Shown one piece after another: positions 5,976 to 21,631 of a DNA stretch of 64,000 nucleotides. Under the pieces are notes generated by a model. It was given only the letters and a program-made list of their open reading frames with translations. It was not told where the DNA came from and ran no database searches. Position 1 is the first letter of the stretch, and every line of letters starts with the position of its first letter. Source of the stretch: Escherichia coli (GTDB lineage Bacteria; Pseudomonadota; Gammaproteobacteria; Enterobacterales; Enterobacteriaceae); assembly GCF_002854065.1 (NCBI RefSeq), contig NZ_CP024147.1; one strand, given 5' to 3'. Both the position numbers and the translations under genes were made by a program.

Positions 5976-6087
5976 AGTCTGCCTGCAAAATTTTTGAAAC
6001 CAGTCATCAAATATTACCGTTTCACAACACTAATTTCACTCCCTACACTTTGCGGCGGTGTTTAATTGAGAGATTTAGAGAATATAC

Positions 6088-7299
6088 ATGCAACCTGGGA
6101 AAAGATTTTTAGTCTGGCTGGCGGGTTTGAGCGTACTCGGTTTTCTGGCAACCGATATGTATCTGCCTGCTTTCGCCGCCATACAGGCCGATCTGCAAAC
6201 GCCTGCGTCTGCTGTTAGTGCCAGCCTTAGTCTGTTCCTTGCCGGTTTTGCCGCAGCCCAGCTTCTGTGGGGGCCGCTTTCCGACCGTTATGGTCGTAAA
6301 CCGGTATTATTAATCGGCCTGACAATTTTTGCGTTAGGTAGTCTGGGGATGCTGTGGGTAGAAAACGCCGCTATGCTGCTGGTATTGCGTTTTGTACAAG
6401 CTGTGGGTGTCTGCGCCGCGGCGGTTATCTGGCAAGCGTTAGTGACGGATTATTATCCTTCACAGAAAGTTAACCGAATTTTTGCGACCATCATGCCGCT
6501 GGTGGGTCTATCTCCGGCCCTGGCTCCTCTGTTAGGAAGCTGGCTGCTGGTCCATTTTTCCTGGCAGGCGATTTTCGCCACCCTTTTTGCCATTACCGTG
6601 GTGCTGATTCTGCCTATTTTCTGGCTCAAACCCACGACGAAGGCCCGTAACAATAGTCAGGATGGTCTGACCTTTACCGACCTGCTACGTTCTAAAACCT
6701 ATCGCGGCAACGTGCTGATATACGCGGCCTGTTCAGCCAGTTTTTTTGCATGGCTGACCGGTTCACCGTTCATCCTTAGTGAAATGGGCTACAGCCCGGC
6801 AGTTATTGGTTTAAGTTATGTCCCGCAAACTATCGCGTTTCTGATTGGTGGTTATGGCTGTCGCGCCGCGCTGCAGAAATGGCAAGGCAAGCAGTTATTA
6901 CCGTGGTTGCTGGTGCTGTTTGCTGTCAGCGTCATTGCGACCTGGGCTGCGGGCTTCATTAGCCATGTGTCGCTGGTCGAAATCCTGATCCCATTCTGTG
7001 TGATGGCGATTGCCAATGGCGCGATCTACCCTATTGTTGTCGCCCAGGCGCTGCGTCCCTTCCCACACGCAACTGGTCGCGCCGCAGCGTTGCAGAACAC
7101 TCTACAACTGGGTCTGTGCTTCCTCGCAAGTCTGGTAGTTTCCTGGCTGATCAGTATCAGCACGCCATTGCTCACCACCACCAGCGTGATGTTATCAACA
7201 GTAGTGCTGGTCGCGCTGGGTTACATGATGCAACGTTGTGAAGAAGTTGGCTGCCAGAATCATGGCAATGCCGAAGTCGCTCATAGCGAATCACACTGA
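6088..7299 (+). CDS. punC: MFS transporter (purine nucleoside exporter)
   Basis: 403-aa polytopic membrane ORF, divergently paired with the LysR regulator. Confidence 0.8.
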
Positions 7300-13307: not shown

Positions 13308-14912
13308 ATGAAAAAAATTGCTATTGTGGGTGCCGGGCCTACGGGGATCTACACCTTATTCTCGCTTCTACAGCAACAAACTCCACTTTCTATTTCTATC
13401 TTCGAGCAGGCTGGCGAGGCCGGTGTCGGGATGCCATACAGTGATGAGGAAAACTCAAAAATGATGCTGGCAAATATTGCCAGTATTGAAATACCACCGA
13501 TTTATTGTACGTATCTCGAATGGCTACAAAAGCAAGAAGCCAGCCATCTCCAGCGTTATGGCGTTAAAAAAGAAACCTTGCACGATCGTCATTTTTTACC
13601 GCGAATTCTGCTGGGCGAATATTTCCGCGATCAATTTTTACGATTAGTAGACCAGGCACGAAAGCAAAAATTTGCAGTGGCTGTTTATGAATCATGCCAG
13701 GTTACCGATCTGCAAATTACAAATGCTGGCGTCATGCTCGCTACAAATCAGGATTTACCCAGCGAGACGTTTGATTTAGCGGTGATTGCCACGGGTCACG
13801 TCTGGCCTGATGAAGAAGAAGCAACCCGAACGAATTTTCCCAGCCCGTGGTCAGGCCTGCTGGAAGCAAAGGTCGATGCGTGTAACGTGGGTATTATGGG
13901 AACATCCTTGAGCGGACTGGATGCGGCAATGGCAGTGGCTATTCAGCATGGTTCGTTCATTGAAGATGATAAACAACACGTCGTTTTTCACCGCGATAAC
14001 GCAAGTGAAAAGCTAAATATCACGTTGATGTCGCGCACGGGTATTTTACCCGAAGCCGATTTCTATTGCCCTATTCCCTACGAGCCCTTACACATCGTCA
14101 CCGATCAGGCATTAAATGCTGAGATTCAAAAAGGCGAATATGGCCTTTTGGATCGGGTATTTAGATTGATAGTAGAGGAAATCAAGTTTGCTGATCCAGA
14201 CTGGAGCCAACGCATAGCCTTAGAGAGCCTGAATGTCGATTCCTTTGCTCAAGCCTGGTTTGCCGAGCGCAAACAACGCGACCCATTTGACTGGGCAGAA
14301 AAAAATCTCCAAGAAGTCGAACACAATAAACGAGAAAAACATACTGTTCCCTGGCGTTATGTCATTCTGCGCCTGCATGAAGCAGTACAGGAAATTGTTC
14401 CACATCTGAATGAACACGACCATAAACGGTTCAGTAAAGGCCTTGCCCGGGTTTTCATAGATAATTATGCCGCAATCCCTTCAGAGTCTATTCGTCGGCT
14501 GCTGGCCTTACGTGAAGCGGGAATCATTCATATTCTCGCTCTCGGTGAAGACTACAAAATGGAAATTAACGAGTCGCGCACCGTCCTGAAAACGGAAGAC
14601 AACAGCTACTCGTTTGACGTTTTTATTGATGCCCGCGGGCAGCGTCCGCTTAAAGTGAAAGATATTCCTTTCCCTGGACTACGCGAACAATTACAGAAAA
14701 CAGGGGATGAAATCCCTGATGTTGGTGAAGATTATACGTTACAGCAACCCGAAGATATTCGTGGGCGCGTAGCGTTCGGCGCGTTGCCCTGGTTAATGCA
14801 CGACCAGCCTTTCGTTCAGGGACTTACGGCATGTGCAGAAATTGGTGAGGCGATGGCTCGGGCGGTCGTAAAACCTGCATCCCGTGCTCGTCGGCGTCTT
14901 TCGTTTGATTAA
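13308..14912 (+). CDS. ydhS: FAD/NAD(P)-binding protein of unknown function
   Basis: 534-aa ORF with N-terminal dinucleotide-binding motif IAIVGAGPTG. Confidence 0.8.
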   Translation: MKKIAIVGAGPTGIYTLFSLLQQQTPLSISIFEQAGEAGVGMPYSDEENSKMMLANIASIEIPPIYCTYLEWLQKQEASHLQRYGVKKETLHDRHFLPRILLGEYFRDQFLRLVDQARKQKFAVAVYESCQVTDLQITNAGVMLATNQDLPSETFDLAVIATGHVWPDEEEATRTNFPSPWSGLLEAKVDACNVGIMGTSLSGLDAAMAVAIQHGSFIEDDKQHVVFHRDNASEKLNITLMSRTGILPEADFYCPIPYEPLHIVTDQALNAEIQKGEYGLLDRVFRLIVEEIKFADPDWSQRIALESLNVDSFAQAWFAERKQRDPFDWAEKNLQEVEHNKREKHTVPWRYVILRLHEAVQEIVPHLNEHDHKRFSKGLARVFIDNYAAIPSESIRRLLALREAGIIHILALGEDYKMEINESRTVLKTEDNSYSFDVFIDARGQRPLKVKDIPFPGLREQLQKTGDEIPDVGEDYTLQQPEDIRGRVAFGALPWLMHDQPFVQGLTACAEIGEAMARAVVKPASRARRRLSFD

Positions 14913-14923
14913 AGGTAAAGCTA

Positions 14924-15736
14924 TCAGCACTCAACAAACTGATGCTGTTCATTAAGACGATAGCGGACTCCGGCTCGAATATTGTTTTCACCTTCAATGG
15001 CGACGGCGAAACGAACTCTTTCGCCGTCATGATATGCCAGTGCGGCGCTTCCTCCTGGCCCGAGAATAATTGAGTCGACCACGCCCGTGCTCACTACCGT
15101 TGAATTTTCACCGCTGGCAATGATGTGTACATTGTCGCCGCTGTTGACAATTTTGGCGTTTGCGCCAAAGCTGGCGATTTGCACCAGGTCACCATTACTG
15201 GCGACATGACATCGTTCACCCAATGTACAAACGCGTACTCGCATTCCGGTATTCGCAATCCGACTGCTATCTCCAGCGCTGCTTATCCGCGAAGAATTGC
15301 CGGTTACAGCAACCCGTGCGCGCTCACCGGAGCTGCCAATGTGACTGTTAAAGCCGACACTTCCAATCCGCACGCTATAACCCATACTGGCAATTTGTAC
15401 AGCATACCCAGCGGTTGCGATTCTGGCGTTATCCTCACAACAGCCGATGCGAGCATGATCGTCGCTGCGGGCAAACTGACTGCAAAATGCTCTCTCTCCG
15501 GGATCTGTGGCCAGTTTTTGCATAGAGGAAACTTCCTGATGCGCGAAGTTTTCATCCGCCAGCCATTTTTTCCACGCATACTCAACAAGACTCTCCGCCC
15601 AGTCCGTATATCCTTCCTCAATCAGTGCATGATGAATATCAGCATAACTACCGCCGCGCGGGAAATGGCGCAGGAACCAGCGATACATCACCGCTCCGAT
15701 ACGCCATTCTCGCAGGTCTGCTCGTGTAATGATCAT
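14924..15736 (-). CDS. ydhT: Nonapeptide-repeat protein, last gene of the ydhYVWXUT operon
   Basis: 270-aa ORF; residues about 102-218 are at least 13 tandem 9-residue units (YAVQIASMG, YSVRIGSVG, FNSHIGSSG, ...). Confidence 0.8.
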   Translation of the reverse strand: MIITRADLREWRIGAVMYRWFLRHFPRGGSYADIHHALIEEGYTDWAESLVEYAWKKWLADENFAHQEVSSMQKLATDPGERAFCSQFARSDDHARIGCCEDNARIATAGYAVQIASMGYSVRIGSVGFNSHIGSSGERARVAVTGNSSRISSAGDSSRIANTGMRVRVCTLGERCHVASNGDLVQIASFGANAKIVNSGDNVHIIASGENSTVVSTGVVDSIILGPGGSAALAYHDGERVRFAVAIEGENNIRAGVRYRLNEQHQFVEC

Positions 15737-15739
15737 TCG

Positions 15740-16525
15740 TTAGTGCCGGTGATAGCCATCGACCATGCTTTTAAAGGTTTCGTGTGGCGTACGCCCCGTG
15801 GTGCAAAGATAAAGATGACCGAAGATAAAAAAGAGGCTTATAAATGCCAGAGCAAAATGCGCCTGCAATAACCAGTATCTTACGCCAGGAAACACATCTC
15901 CCACGGCTTGCGGATAGAGACACAGCAGCCCCGTCAATAGTAACAACGGCAGCAATCCATACATGACACCAACATAGGCAACCTGCTGTAAGGGATTAAA
16001 TTTAGACTGGGTTGTTGCCGGGAAAGGATGTTCTTCCCCCTGCATAATGCCAAACAAATAAAATCGCGTTTGTTTTGCCGCCCGCTCCAGCCAACCCTGA
16101 CGACGAATGCGATAGTGGTGGCCATTACCCCCAACGGCATTGATCAGAACAAAGCCGTGCCAGCATGCCAGTAACAAAAATCCGCAAACTTCATGCACCG
16201 CAACCAGACTTTTAACCGCAGTTGCGCCCACCAGCGCAAAGTGATTTATCAGCCCACTTGCCAGCAACAATACAAAGAGTAACGCATTCGACCAGTGCCA
16301 TAATCTGACCGCTTTGCTGTAAAGATAAATCTTCTCACCATGATCGGTGGCTGATTTCTTCACGCCACGAGCACGAAGCAAGGCGTGCAGCCCCAGCACC
16401 AACCACATCCCAACCAGCAATACTCCGGCAATGATCAACCACACCGGCCAAAATTCGGGAGTGAACTGTGGCACATAGTTCGCTAACTGGCTCTGAAACT
16501 GTTCAGCATGTTGCGACGGGTTCAT
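15740..16525 (-). CDS. ydhU: PhsC/NrfD-like integral membrane cytochrome b-type subunit
   Basis: 261-aa polytopic ORF with conserved His in helices; 4-nt overlap with ydhX. Confidence 0.8.
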   Translation of the reverse strand: MNPSQHAEQFQSQLANYVPQFTPEFWPVWLIIAGVLLVGMWLVLGLHALLRARGVKKSATDHGEKIYLYSKAVRLWHWSNALLFVLLLASGLINHFALVGATAVKSLVAVHEVCGFLLLACWHGFVLINAVGGNGHHYRIRRQGWLERAAKQTRFYLFGIMQGEEHPFPATTQSKFNPLQQVAYVGVMYGLLPLLLLTGLLCLYPQAVGDVFPGVRYWLLQAHFALAFISLFFIFGHLYLCTTGRTPHETFKSMVDGYHRH

Positions 16526-17190
16526 ACATTTTCCTTTTTAATCAAATGTTGACCGAACCGGCGATACAGATGCGGTTTCCCGGCACCAGGTAGCTGATAT
16601 TGATAGTATTTATTATCCTGCAACCACACCTGAATTTCTGGGCTATCTTCGCGACCAAAGATCAATGCGTGTTCCGGGCAGGCGCTGACGCAAATGGGCG
16701 GAAAGCCTTTTGCCAGTCGGGACTCAGCGCAGAAATCACATTTATCTGCCACTTTAGTGACAGGGTTAAGGTAGCGAACCTGGTACGGACAAGCGCCAAT
16801 GCAATAACTGCAGCCGATGCACTGCGATTTTTCTACCCGCACGATCCCCTGCTCATCACGCCACGACGCCCCTGTCGGGCATACGTCGATGCACGGAGCA
16901 TCTTCGCAGTGCTGACATGACTGGCGAAAAAAGTGATACTGCGTTTCGTTGTCGTTATCGGTGACTGGAATGTGTGCTATCGATAAACGGCTTCCCTGAG
17001 CGGGGACGTGGTTAGTTTTACGGCATGCGCGGGCGCAAATATTACAGCCATTGCACCGTGACTCGTCATGAATCATGGCATACCGAACTTCCTTTTCTTG
17101 CCTCGTGTTCGCTAACAGAGAAGACGCAGAACCAGTAAAAAAGATTACTGTTCCCATCCCCAGAACAAATTTGCGTCGAGTGAAGGACAT
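16522..17190 (-). CDS. ydhX: Tat-exported 4Fe-4S ferredoxin-like subunit
   Basis: 222 aa from the internal Met (MSFTRRKFVLGMGTVIFFTGSASSLLA, twin-arginine signal); multiple CxxCxxCxxxCP clusters. The ORF-track start at 17241 is an unsupported extension. Confidence 0.8.
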   Translation of the reverse strand: MSFTRRKFVLGMGTVIFFTGSASSLLANTRQEKEVRYAMIHDESRCNGCNICARACRKTNHVPAQGSRLSIAHIPVTDNDNETQYHFFRQSCQHCEDAPCIDVCPTGASWRDEQGIVRVEKSQCIGCSYCIGACPYQVRYLNPVTKVADKCDFCAESRLAKGFPPICVSACPEHALIFGREDSPEIQVWLQDNKYYQYQLPGAGKPHLYRRFGQHLIKKENV

Positions 17191-17253
17191 CTGATTATCC
17201 CCTAATGCAGTGGCTGCAACTGTCCACCCTATCCATGACATCTCCCTGAAATT

Positions 17254-17901
17254 TCAGGGGTTCTGAAACTGCTCTACCTCGAACCATTCGCATAAGCCAT
17301 AAGCCTTGCCATAGGTCATAAATCGCTCGCTAAACAAGTACAACACCGCCGTCGATGACTCCACCTGCCGTATATCGGCATATTCAGGTGCAACATCCAT
17401 CGCGGCGATCGCGGCTTCAATCTGCGCTTCCTGGAAGTAATATGGCGCTTGCATCAGCATGGCGACTTTGTAAGGACGAGGATACGTCTGGCACTCAAAA
17501 CGAACGGCGTGTGCAATGGCGCGACAAATGTCCTGCTCCACAACTTGCAAAGACATCGCCGCGTAGTTTTCACTCATGGCCTGCGTTGAGTAATAGTAAT
17601 CATCCTGACTTCCCGTCATACAAGCGATATCCGCGTAGTCTCCGTTCTGCTTAATGCTTTCCAGCAAAACTGACAGTTCCTCTTCTGCAACTGAATAGGG
17701 TGGCGAGAGAAACACGGCGCGCGCCACCAGCTGCCCAGCCACAGAATGCTGGCGAATGAACTCTGCCAGGATTTCAGCCGGTTCTGGTTCGGTTACCGTA
17801 TCAACGGGGTGACGCATCCCCTGCAACCATTGCCGCTTCGCCTCGTCAACTTCGCTGACTTTCGCTAACGGCAATTCATCCTGATGGTTCATCTTACCCA
17901 T
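17254..17901 (-). CDS. ydhW: Operon protein of unknown function (possible maturation/chaperone factor)
   Basis: 215-aa ORF between ydhX and ydhV on the same strand. Confidence 0.75.
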   Translation of the reverse strand: MGKMNHQDELPLAKVSEVDEAKRQWLQGMRHPVDTVTEPEPAEILAEFIRQHSVAGQLVARAVFLSPPYSVAEEELSVLLESIKQNGDYADIACMTGSQDDYYYSTQAMSENYAAMSLQVVEQDICRAIAHAVRFECQTYPRPYKVAMLMQAPYYFQEAQIEAAIAAMDVAPEYADIRQVESSTAVLYLFSERFMTYGKAYGLCEWFEVEQFQNP

Positions 17902-17904
17902 TCC

Positions 17905-20091
<2,187 letters not shown>

Positions 20092-20504
20092 TCACCGCAT
20101 AACACACATTTCGAGGATTTTTTACTTTCGGTATTTACGGTGGCCATCATCCACGGGCATGCCGTAGTACAGGCGCTACAGCCAATACAACGTTTATGAT
20201 CGACGGTAATACAGCCTTCTTTCTGCTGCCAGGTAATCGCACCAATCGGGCAGACGTTCATGCATTGCGGCTCTTTGCATTGACGGCAGGTGTCCGCGGT
20301 ATAGTTGAGATCGCCATACAGGCCGCCGCCAGAGCCAACCCCGTTGTCGCCAAAGAAATAATTGCGATGGATTTTGATACGGGAGAAGAATGTCCCTACT
20401 GAGCCATCGTTGAAGTTGGTACAAGAGATTTCACAGCGGTGGCAACCCGTGCATCGCGCTCGCTGGGTCACCAGCTCCCCTTTGGGTGTATTTATCAACC
20501 CTAC

Positions 20505-20512
20505 TGTGCCGC
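20505..20512. repeat. IS1 target-site duplication, left copy (TGTGCCGC)
   Basis: Identical 8-mer immediately flanks both IS1 ends (20505-20512 and 21281-21288). Confidence 0.85.
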
Positions 20513-20567
20513 GGTGATGCTGCCAACTTACTGATTTAGTGTATGATGGTGTTTTTGAGGTGCTCCA

Positions 20568-20843
20568 GTGGCTTCTGTTTCTATCAGCTGTCCCTCCTGT
20601 TCAGCTACTGACGGGGTGGTGCGTAACGGCAAAAGCACTGCCGGACATCAGCGCTATCTCTGCTCTCACTGCCGTAAAACATGGCAACTGCAGTTCACTT
20701 ACACCGCTTCTCAACCCGGTACGCACCAGAAAATCATTGATATGGCCATGAATGGCGTTGGATGCCGGGCAACCGCCCGCATTATGGGCGTTGGCCTCAA
20801 CACGATTTTCCGCCATTTAAAAAACTCAGGCCGCAGTCGGTAA
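20568..20843 (+). CDS. insA: IS1 InsA (transposition repressor / N-terminal part of InsAB' transposase)
   Basis: 91-aa [46 protein letters not shown]... with zinc-finger-like Cys pairs. Confidence 0.95.
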
Positions 20844-21265
20844 CCTCGCGCATACAGCCGGGCAGTGACGTCATCGTCTGCGCGGAAATGGACGAACAGT
20901 GGGGATACGTCGGGGCTAAATCGCGCCAGCGCTGGCTGTTTTACGCGTATGACAGGCTCCGGAAGACGGTTGTTGCGCACGTATTCGGTGAACGCACTAT
21001 GGCGACGCTGGGGCGTCTTATGAGCCTGCTGTCACCCTTTGACGTGGTGATATGGATGACGGATGGCTGGCCGCTGTATGAATCCCGCCTGAAGGGAAAG
21101 CTGCACGTAATCAGCAAGCGATATACGCAGCGAATTGAGCGGCATAACCTGAATCTGAGGCAGCACCTGGCACGGCTGGGACGGAAGTCGCTGTCGTTCT
21201 CAAAATCGGTGGAGCTGCATGACAAAGTCATCGGGCATTATCTGAACATAAAACACTATCAATAA
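20762..21265 (+). CDS. insB: IS1 InsB (catalytic part of InsAB' transposase, made by -1 frameshift)
   Basis: 167-aa [19 protein letters not shown]...HYLNIKHYQ in the -1 frame relative to insA. Confidence 0.95.
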
Positions 21266-21280
21266 GTTGGAGTCATTACC

Positions 21281-21288: not shown

Positions 21289-21631
21289 TATCAATATCTT
21301 CCTGTTTGCAACCCAAAAGTGACAGTAACGCAGGGGCAATTGTTAGACCAGCAAGGCCTTTTCCTGATATACGCAAGAATTCTAATCGCGTTAAGCCAAT
21401 ATCTAATAGTGGACGATCAACCGGGTTCATTTATTTCGCATCCTCTTCGCAAACACAGTGCTGACAATTCAGCAGCCTGATATTAAGCATTCAACTAATA
21501 CGCTGCTGACTCTGTCCTCAACACCAGATATTTTCCCTAACCCGATAGTGTATGAGAAAAGATTTAACGCCGATAAACTAATCCTTTATGGTTAGGAGAA
21601 AAAATAATGTGGTTATTCTGGGCTCTTAACA

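Follow-up and report, generated by a model that had tools for sequence, protein, structure and literature searches.

The DNA analysed here (the window) is a stretch of 64,000 nucleotides from Escherichia coli (assembly GCF_002854065.1, contig NZ_CP024147.1), which contains on its minus strand the gene ydhT (14924..15736) encoding 270 amino acids followed by a stop codon. The gene was identified from the ORF list, from the annotation in E. coli genomes and from the NCBIfam model PRK09946 (NF007410, "protein YdhT"), of which positions 1-269 match residues 2-270 of the protein with 488.8 bits (E = 4.4e-147); the curated cut-off of the model being 300 bits, the full-length score places the protein within the family. 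All close homologues of YdhT carry PF27195 (YdhT_N) in precomputed annotation. Of 5426 complete E. coli genomes, 5417 contain the gene and annotate it as ydhT. The allele of the window shares at least 99% DNA identity with only 25 of these 5417 genomes and 95-99% with the remainder, which points to a minority lineage of E. coli as the source of the window. A gene for YdhT (97.8% amino-acid identity) is also found at 18751-19560 of CP025887.1, an unannotated 23-kb INPHARED record named "Escherichia phage 503046", which probably represents misfiled chromosomal DNA and not a phage-borne ydhT. Some mentions of "ydhT" in the literature were set aside, as they refer to an unrelated mannanase of B. 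subtilis or are typing errors for YTHDF or yhdT.

ydhT is the last gene of ydhYVWXUT and begins 3 nt past the stop codon of ydhU. Upstream of it, all on the minus strand, lie ydhU (15740-16525; cytochrome b), ydhX (16522-17241; an Fe-S protein in whose translation the twin-arginine motif MSFTRRKFVLG can be read), ydhW (17254-17901) and ydhV (17905 to about 20010; aldehyde ferredoxin oxidoreductase family), all four assigned from their ORFs and NCBIfam matches. The first gene of the operon, ydhY, is interrupted by an IS1 element of 768 bp with InsA and InsB ORFs (20513-21280), which leaves fragments at 20028-20512 and 21289-21430 and is flanked by a target duplication of 8-9 bp, (c)tgtgccgc. 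A query spanning the IS1 junction was covered to at least 80% in no more than 31 of the 5426 E. coli genomes. In this strain the insertion cuts ydhV-W-X-U-T off from the promoter of the operon, and ydhT may here not even be expressed together with the enzyme.

The initial annotation had read residues 102-218 of YdhT as at least 13 tandem nonapeptides with a hydrophobic residue at position 5 and glycine at position 9. These residues correspond exactly to 15083..15433 (minus strand), and the same thirteen nonamers were recovered in the same register: DNARIATAG, YAVQIASMG, YSVRIGSVG, FNSHIGSSG, ERARVAVTG, NSSRISSAG, DSSRIANTG, MRVRVCTLG, ERCHVASNG, DLVQIASFG, ANAKIVNSG, DNVHIIASG and ENSTVVSTG. 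Their consensus is [DEYN]-x-[VSA]-[RHQK]-[IV]-[AG]-[ST]-x-G. Position 5 is Ile (nine units) or Val (four units) and position 9 is Gly throughout; given the composition of the protein, the chance of finding Gly at all 13 register sites is about 2e-15. Position 4 is Arg, His, Gln or Lys in 12 of the 13 units and position 1 is Asp, Glu or Asn in eight; Ala or Gly predominates at position 6, and Ser, Thr or Asn at position 7. When the BLOSUM62 autocorrelation of YdhT was compared with that of residue shuffles, z values of 12.1, 10.0, 9.4 and 9.1 were obtained at lags 9, 18, 27 and 36, and of 1 or less at all remaining lags, so that the periodicity clearly withstood the test against chance. A search for a super-period of 18 or 27 residues found that these four lags score alike and that lag 54 of the DNA lies only slightly above lag 27. 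In the alignment of orthologues, indels comprise whole units, namely an insertion of 18 residues in one protein (P0037) and an indel of 45 residues in another (P0036).

The 27-bp period that had also been claimed for the DNA exists, with a lag-27 identity of 0.44 as compared to 0.29 in codon shuffles (z = 6.4), but it contains nothing beyond the protein repeat: shuffling of synonymous codons gives an expectation of 0.443, from which the observed value does not deviate (z = 0.1). The repeat units average 44% identity at the DNA level, and Tandem Repeats Finder found no 27-bp array in ydhT or in one orthologue. The 27-bp period is thus a mere consequence of the protein repeat. The divergence of the units, the missing array and the lack of any excess over the synonymous shuffle indicate that the repeat array is ancient and has been held at the protein level.

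On the plus strand an ORF of 248 codons plus stop (15125..15871) covers residues 1-204 of ydhT together with the 3′ end of ydhU. It had been considered spurious and its length had been ascribed to the periodic DNA; frame analysis and codon counts bear out the former but not the latter. The ORF is a shadow in the antisense frame that is codon-aligned with both ydhT and ydhU, where stop codons can arise only from sense TTA, CTA and TCA. The frame is open because none of these codons occurs in ydhT residues 1-211; for serine, 19 of the 26 codons of the whole gene are AGY. Of the 249 codon positions of the ORF, 146 lie outside the 13 canonical repeats. Shadow frames of equal or greater length are found elsewhere in the window, and in four orthologous ydhT genes the frame is broken by 2, 3, 4 and 18 stops. 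In a gene of Edwardsiella phage GF-2 (see below), where the DNA is truly periodic, the same antisense frame is interrupted by a stop at every ninth codon. Downstream, ydhS (plus strand) and ydhT (minus strand) are convergent with 11 bp between their stop codons (14910-14926). The pair is among the candidates for an "excludon", in which convergent transcripts overlap (PMC12288877), which makes genuine antisense transcription across the 3′ end of ydhT plausible, though the ORF is spurious.

An AlphaFold2 model of YdhT, built with an alignment of 23 orthologous sequences, has a mean pLDDT of 87.3, with block means of 86-97 in the repeat region and 92-97 in the C-terminal part. It predicts four helices within residues 1-76, disorder in a linker at 71-84, then fifteen short strands about 9 residues apart from residue 87 to 216, and a β domain at 220-270. 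The helices (5-11, 15-24, 31-40 and 44-76) make up the N-terminal head (residues 1-76; 15509..15736), which corresponds to YdhT_N (PF27195), a label that orthologues and phage relatives of YdhT bear in precomputed annotation. Residues invariant in the head among the aligned orthologues include W11, R19, W20, F21, F25, P26, G28 and G29. The head is followed by a flexible, poorly conserved linker (residues 77-83 approximately; 15488..15508), which cannot be aligned among orthologues; the segment with a pLDDT below 50 (residues 71-84) is variable in length among them.

Between the linker and the thirteen canonical units, residues 84-101 (15434..15487) can be listed in register as two degenerate units, FCSQFARSD (84-92) and DHARIGCCE (93-101). 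Strands predicted at 87-90 and 96-99 keep the spacing of 9 residues. Since both degenerate units carry an in-register predicted strand, "at least 13" is right for the sequence and fifteen is the structural count in the model. The predicted rod is followed by a C-terminal cap domain (residues 219-270; 14927..15082), delimited by column conservation, by phrog_27197, which covers this domain alone, and by predicted strands (220-225, 230-236, 241-247, 258-261 and 267-269; pLDDT 92-97). The cap is the best-conserved part of the protein family-wide: at each of G226, G229, D237, R242, G249, E250, I253 and Y259, the residue is retained by at least 80% of 57 diverse relatives.

That the repeats form a β-solenoid, as the initial annotation had supposed, is borne out by the prediction, in which there is one strand per 9 residues; the strands would be parallel and stacked by a repeating coil, and the model has structural matches among solved solenoids. 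The solved structures compared with the model included the BF0245 adhesin, SufB, SufD, the RTX blocks of CyaA and the C-terminal domain of CAP, and the best superposing partners were narrow solenoids. In a Foldseek search of the PDB nothing was significant (best E = 0.25), which means that the likeness to solved folds is one of general architecture only. Sequence searches of the PDB with YdhT and with the orthologue profile likewise found nothing significant; the best match was the RTX domain of CyaA, in the 9-residue register, with E = 0.098. A Pfam scan of YdhT at E ≤ 1 returned no repeat family but only two sub-threshold chance matches (MSSS and DUF6876). Pentapeptide repeats and the hexapeptide repeats of left-handed β-helices were discarded, as YdhT has z values of -1.1 and 0.1 at lags 5 and 6 and no Pfam match to either. 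We regard the repeats and the predicted solenoid fold as highly probable.

The closest known parallel is the β-roll of RTX proteins (HemolysinCabind; e.g., CyaA), which like YdhT consists of tandem nonapeptides, each contributing a short strand and a Gly-containing turn. RTX blocks of CyaA superpose on the YdhT model over 113-155 residues at 2.7-3.5 Å. A coil of the RTX roll is made up of two nonapeptides, i.e., 18 residues. Because this arrangement is that of the RTX roll and narrow solenoids superpose best, 18 residues per coil are also rather likely in YdhT, a figure taken from the RTX likeness rather than from coordinates; repeat numbers in the relatives of YdhT are both odd and even, from 8 to 28. 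Unlike RTX proteins, which are secreted by type I systems, YdhT is apparently cytoplasmic and has its own conserved C-terminal cap and N-terminal head, and none of its 13 units contains GGxGxD, nor was there a HemolysinCabind match at E ≤ 1. Other resemblances are more distant. Region IV of MpAFP (PDB 3p4g), a Ca2+-dependent β-helical antifreeze protein, is only 10% identical to YdhT over the aligned residues, with nothing to indicate homology; the region has calcium-bound repeats of 19 residues and is part of an extracellular adhesin. The β-helix core of SufB and SufD, the scaffold of Fe-S cluster assembly, has no sequence similarity to YdhT and scores no better than unrelated solenoids; unlike SufB/SufD, the YdhT family has no conserved Cys/His cluster ligands and no partner ATPase. 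CsgA resembles YdhT at the level of the fold only. YdhT is thus best described as a predicted nonapeptide β-solenoid without the RTX calcium motif, a variation in sequence on a known architecture.

When 1.84 billion representative proteins were searched with a YdhT profile, 1020 clusters matched at E ≤ 1e-3, 409 of them at E ≤ 1e-10. Many of the clusters match only the rod and the cap (profile positions 85-269 approximately) behind other N-terminal domains. DUF7666 (Pfam PF24703) is the head in 62 of 116 sampled relatives; further heads are a DarG-like macro domain, a phage domain of the A1S_2505 type and, weakly and below the Pfam threshold, a PcfJ-like domain. Macro domains of the DarG-like kind are of the ADP-ribosyl glycohydrolase type. 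In P0067 (residues 13-150) and P0070 (residues 19-129) a DarG-like macro or A1S_2505-type domain precedes DUF7666, solenoid and cap. As read from their sequences, such fusions hint that rod and cap may serve as a carrier for effector heads. Pfam, in the local copy as well as in the newer precomputed annotation, has no model over rod or cap and covers the heads only (YdhT_N, DUF7666). PADLOC matched neither YdhT nor most of its relatives, the sole match being the DarG-like macro head of P0067. A Cys or His motif conserved across the family was found neither in the orthologue alignment nor among 57 relatives.

The phage proteins with DUF7666 heads (PHROGs 4433, 18079, 14105 and 27197) are homologues of the YdhT rod and cap with E values of 1e-20 to 1e-81, and we hold the homology of YdhT with this phage family to be highly probable. 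Edwardsiella phage GF-2 gp55, P0053 and P0062 share the YdhT_N head as well. In BFVD there were 13 structural matches to the YdhT model at E ≤ 1e-3, with a probability of 1.0 and TM-scores of up to 0.6. Matches were found in 10 genuine phage records, and also in PHROG families 4433, 27197 and 18079. In GF-2, gp55 (6001-7047), a full-length homologue of YdhT, comes directly after the gene of an N-like antiterminator; in phiKX1, phiKX1_180 adjoins an antirepressor gene, and metagenomic relatives lie beside genes for RecT, DNA methylase, YqaJ/RusA or terminase. All seven phage-type relatives examined, five in metagenome or draft assemblies and two in phage genomes, are located in early or accessory phage regions. 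The family as a whole is mostly carried by phages.

The phage relatives, all of them uncharacterised, differ from YdhT in that their heads are mostly other domains and in that their repeats are near-perfect (e.g., SGDDSRLAA and SGYGAQIGS) and variable in number. Tandem Repeats Finder, applied to two phage genes, detected a 27-bp array of 20.9 copies with 89% matches in that of GF-2 gp55 and one of 10.4 copies with 92% matches in a gene of the DUF7666 type. In an evolution experiment with Serratia symbiotica the YdhT-like gene "ydhT_1" (1413 nt) lost exactly 54 bp, the length of two units (PMC12505973), as fits slippage of 27-bp repeats by whole units.

Other readings of the repeats were weighed against this background. 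Were the rod a metal-binding β-roll of the RTX or MpAFP kind, with Asp, Asn or Glu after the glycine binding Ca2+-type ions in the turns, this would account for the identical period of 9 residues, for CyaA being the only PDB sequence match and in register, for a sub-threshold RTX_toxin match of GF-2 gp55 and for the acidic or amide residue at position 1 of eight units. The sequence matches are, however, non-significant, the calcium motif is absent from every unit, AlphaFold2 predicts the fold confidently without ions, and YdhT lacks a secretion signal and presumably resides in the cytoplasm, with its very low free Ca2+; we consider calcium binding very improbable. Hardly less improbable is that the solenoid self-associates or polymerises in the manner of bactofilin or curli, forming filaments or dimers that display the variable heads. 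β-Solenoids with exposed edges do tend to polymerise, and the conserved cap with its charged invariant residues could be an interface for oligomerisation; a dedicated cap domain, on the other hand, normally blocks end-to-end growth, and neither Bactofilin (PF04519) nor the curlin repeat was matched by YdhT at E ≤ 1 or by 116 relatives at E ≤ 1e-3. The idea that the periodicity is an artefact of composition or the region collagen-like draws on the richness in Gly, Ser and Ala, on spurious matches of relatives with perfect repeats to Pfam Collagen and Scl, all below the curated cut-offs, and on the annotation of GF-2 gp55 as "putative collagen-like protein". This label is an artefact of Gly at every 9th residue. 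In collagen Gly would recur at every 3rd, and at lag 3 YdhT has a z value of -0.9. Together with the autocorrelation against composition-preserving shuffles, and with a prediction of strands instead of a polyproline-type helix, the register of the glycines refutes the artefact, to which we assign practically no weight.

How such a fold functions in a redox operon had been called undescribed by the initial annotation, and no description of the repeats, fold or function of YdhT was found in the searchable literature. In all five operon-type proteins examined, E. coli YdhT and its homologues P0047, P0048, P0050 and P0051 from four further lineages, the gene holds the last position in ydhYVWX(U)T, the start often overlapping or abutting the preceding gene. 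The four homologues are 34-46% identical to E. coli YdhT, and the flanks of their operons differ (nap operon, glgP, AbiE and others). The Ydh-type (class V WOR) cluster of Cetobacterium somerae comprises only three genes (PMC13328260), which indicates that YdhT is not a core subunit of the enzyme. By inspection and hydropathy, YdhT has no transmembrane segment (maximum hydropathy 1.23), no twin-arginine motif and no signal peptide; lacking the first two, it is presumably cytoplasmic. A redox or cofactor role appears unlikely from the sequences, as there is no family-wide Cys/His motif.

We propose that YdhT is a soluble cytoplasmic protein in which a helical head is joined by a flexible linker to a rigid solenoid rod of about 15 units closed by the cap. 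Each unit would form a strand of four residues (mostly positions 4-7) and a turn of five residues hinged on Gly 9; with two units per coil, as in RTX β-rolls, the rod would have about 7-8 coils. As judged from strand alternation, Ile/Val 5 would presumably face the core, and the Arg, His, Gln and Lys residues at position 4 would then line up as exposed ladders along the flat faces. The array is old and frozen, its units diverged in DNA and each conserved position for position among orthologues. One lineage of the family, in Enterobacterales and other Gammaproteobacteria, would have become fixed as the final gene of ydhYVWX(U)T, and YdhT would work on the oxidoreductase either within the cytoplasm or from the cytoplasmic side of the membrane. 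For this account as a whole, from head, rod and cap to phage family, operon lineage and accessory role, we see a slightly better than even chance. Only tentatively, and well short of that, do we suggest a non-catalytic scaffold, adaptor or assembly factor of the oxidoreductase, a role to which YdhT without signal peptide, transmembrane segment or cofactor motif, YdhX with its Tat signal and the tight coupling of ydhT to the operon all point.

Not much less probable, though still unlikely, is that YdhT derives from a phage gene, domesticated or merely hitch-hiking at the 3′ end of the operon, that has nothing to do with the oxidoreductase. It might then serve phage exclusion or anti-defence, or act on some conserved target in the cell, as the phage relatives presumably do. 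Outside the operon, its closest relatives are early genes of phages, which argues for an ancestral function unrelated to redox enzymes: full-length homologues with head, rod and cap in early regions (GF-2 gp55, phiKX1_180), the metagenomic relatives next to RecT, DNA methylase and terminase genes, and the DarG-like macro heads all fit such an origin. Machine learning, moreover, placed ydhT among the gene clusters predicting infection by one phage, a weak and correlative indication (PMC12579225). A mere hitch-hiker would hardly have kept the last place in five of five operons despite differing neighbours, with its start overlapping or abutting the preceding gene; the repeats of the operon-type proteins are also frozen, with each unit conserved, which sets them apart from the phage arrays, and PADLOC found no defence system for YdhT. 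An accessory role at the oxidoreductase remains our preferred reading. A further scenario we offer as quite speculative. YdhT would be the domesticated, fixed-length form of a very large phage family of the type head - nonapeptide solenoid - conserved cap, in which slippage by 27 bp shifts the length of the rod and heads are swapped (DUF7666, YdhT_N, DarG-like macro, possibly PcfJ-like). In phages this new kind of scaffold would present early effectors, such as anti-defence enzymes, to a conserved cellular target recognised by the cap, and one copy would have been recruited by Gammaproteobacteria to help, in the cytoplasm, with the assembly or tethering of a molybdenum/tungsten oxidoreductase that depends on Tat.

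Nothing is overturned by these results, as the formation of a solenoid by such repeats is their expected behaviour. ydhT is one of the E. coli genes still without an assigned function, and the Mo/W enzyme of its operon (class V WOR, with Mo-bisMPT YdhV) is without a known substrate. A head-rod-cap solenoid without cofactor motif, encoded by the last gene of the operon and with abundant relatives in the early regions of phages, offers concrete handles for experiments. A model of rod and cap, which occur in more than 1000 clusters, would annotate many phage proteins that are now "hypothetical" or misnamed "collagen-like".
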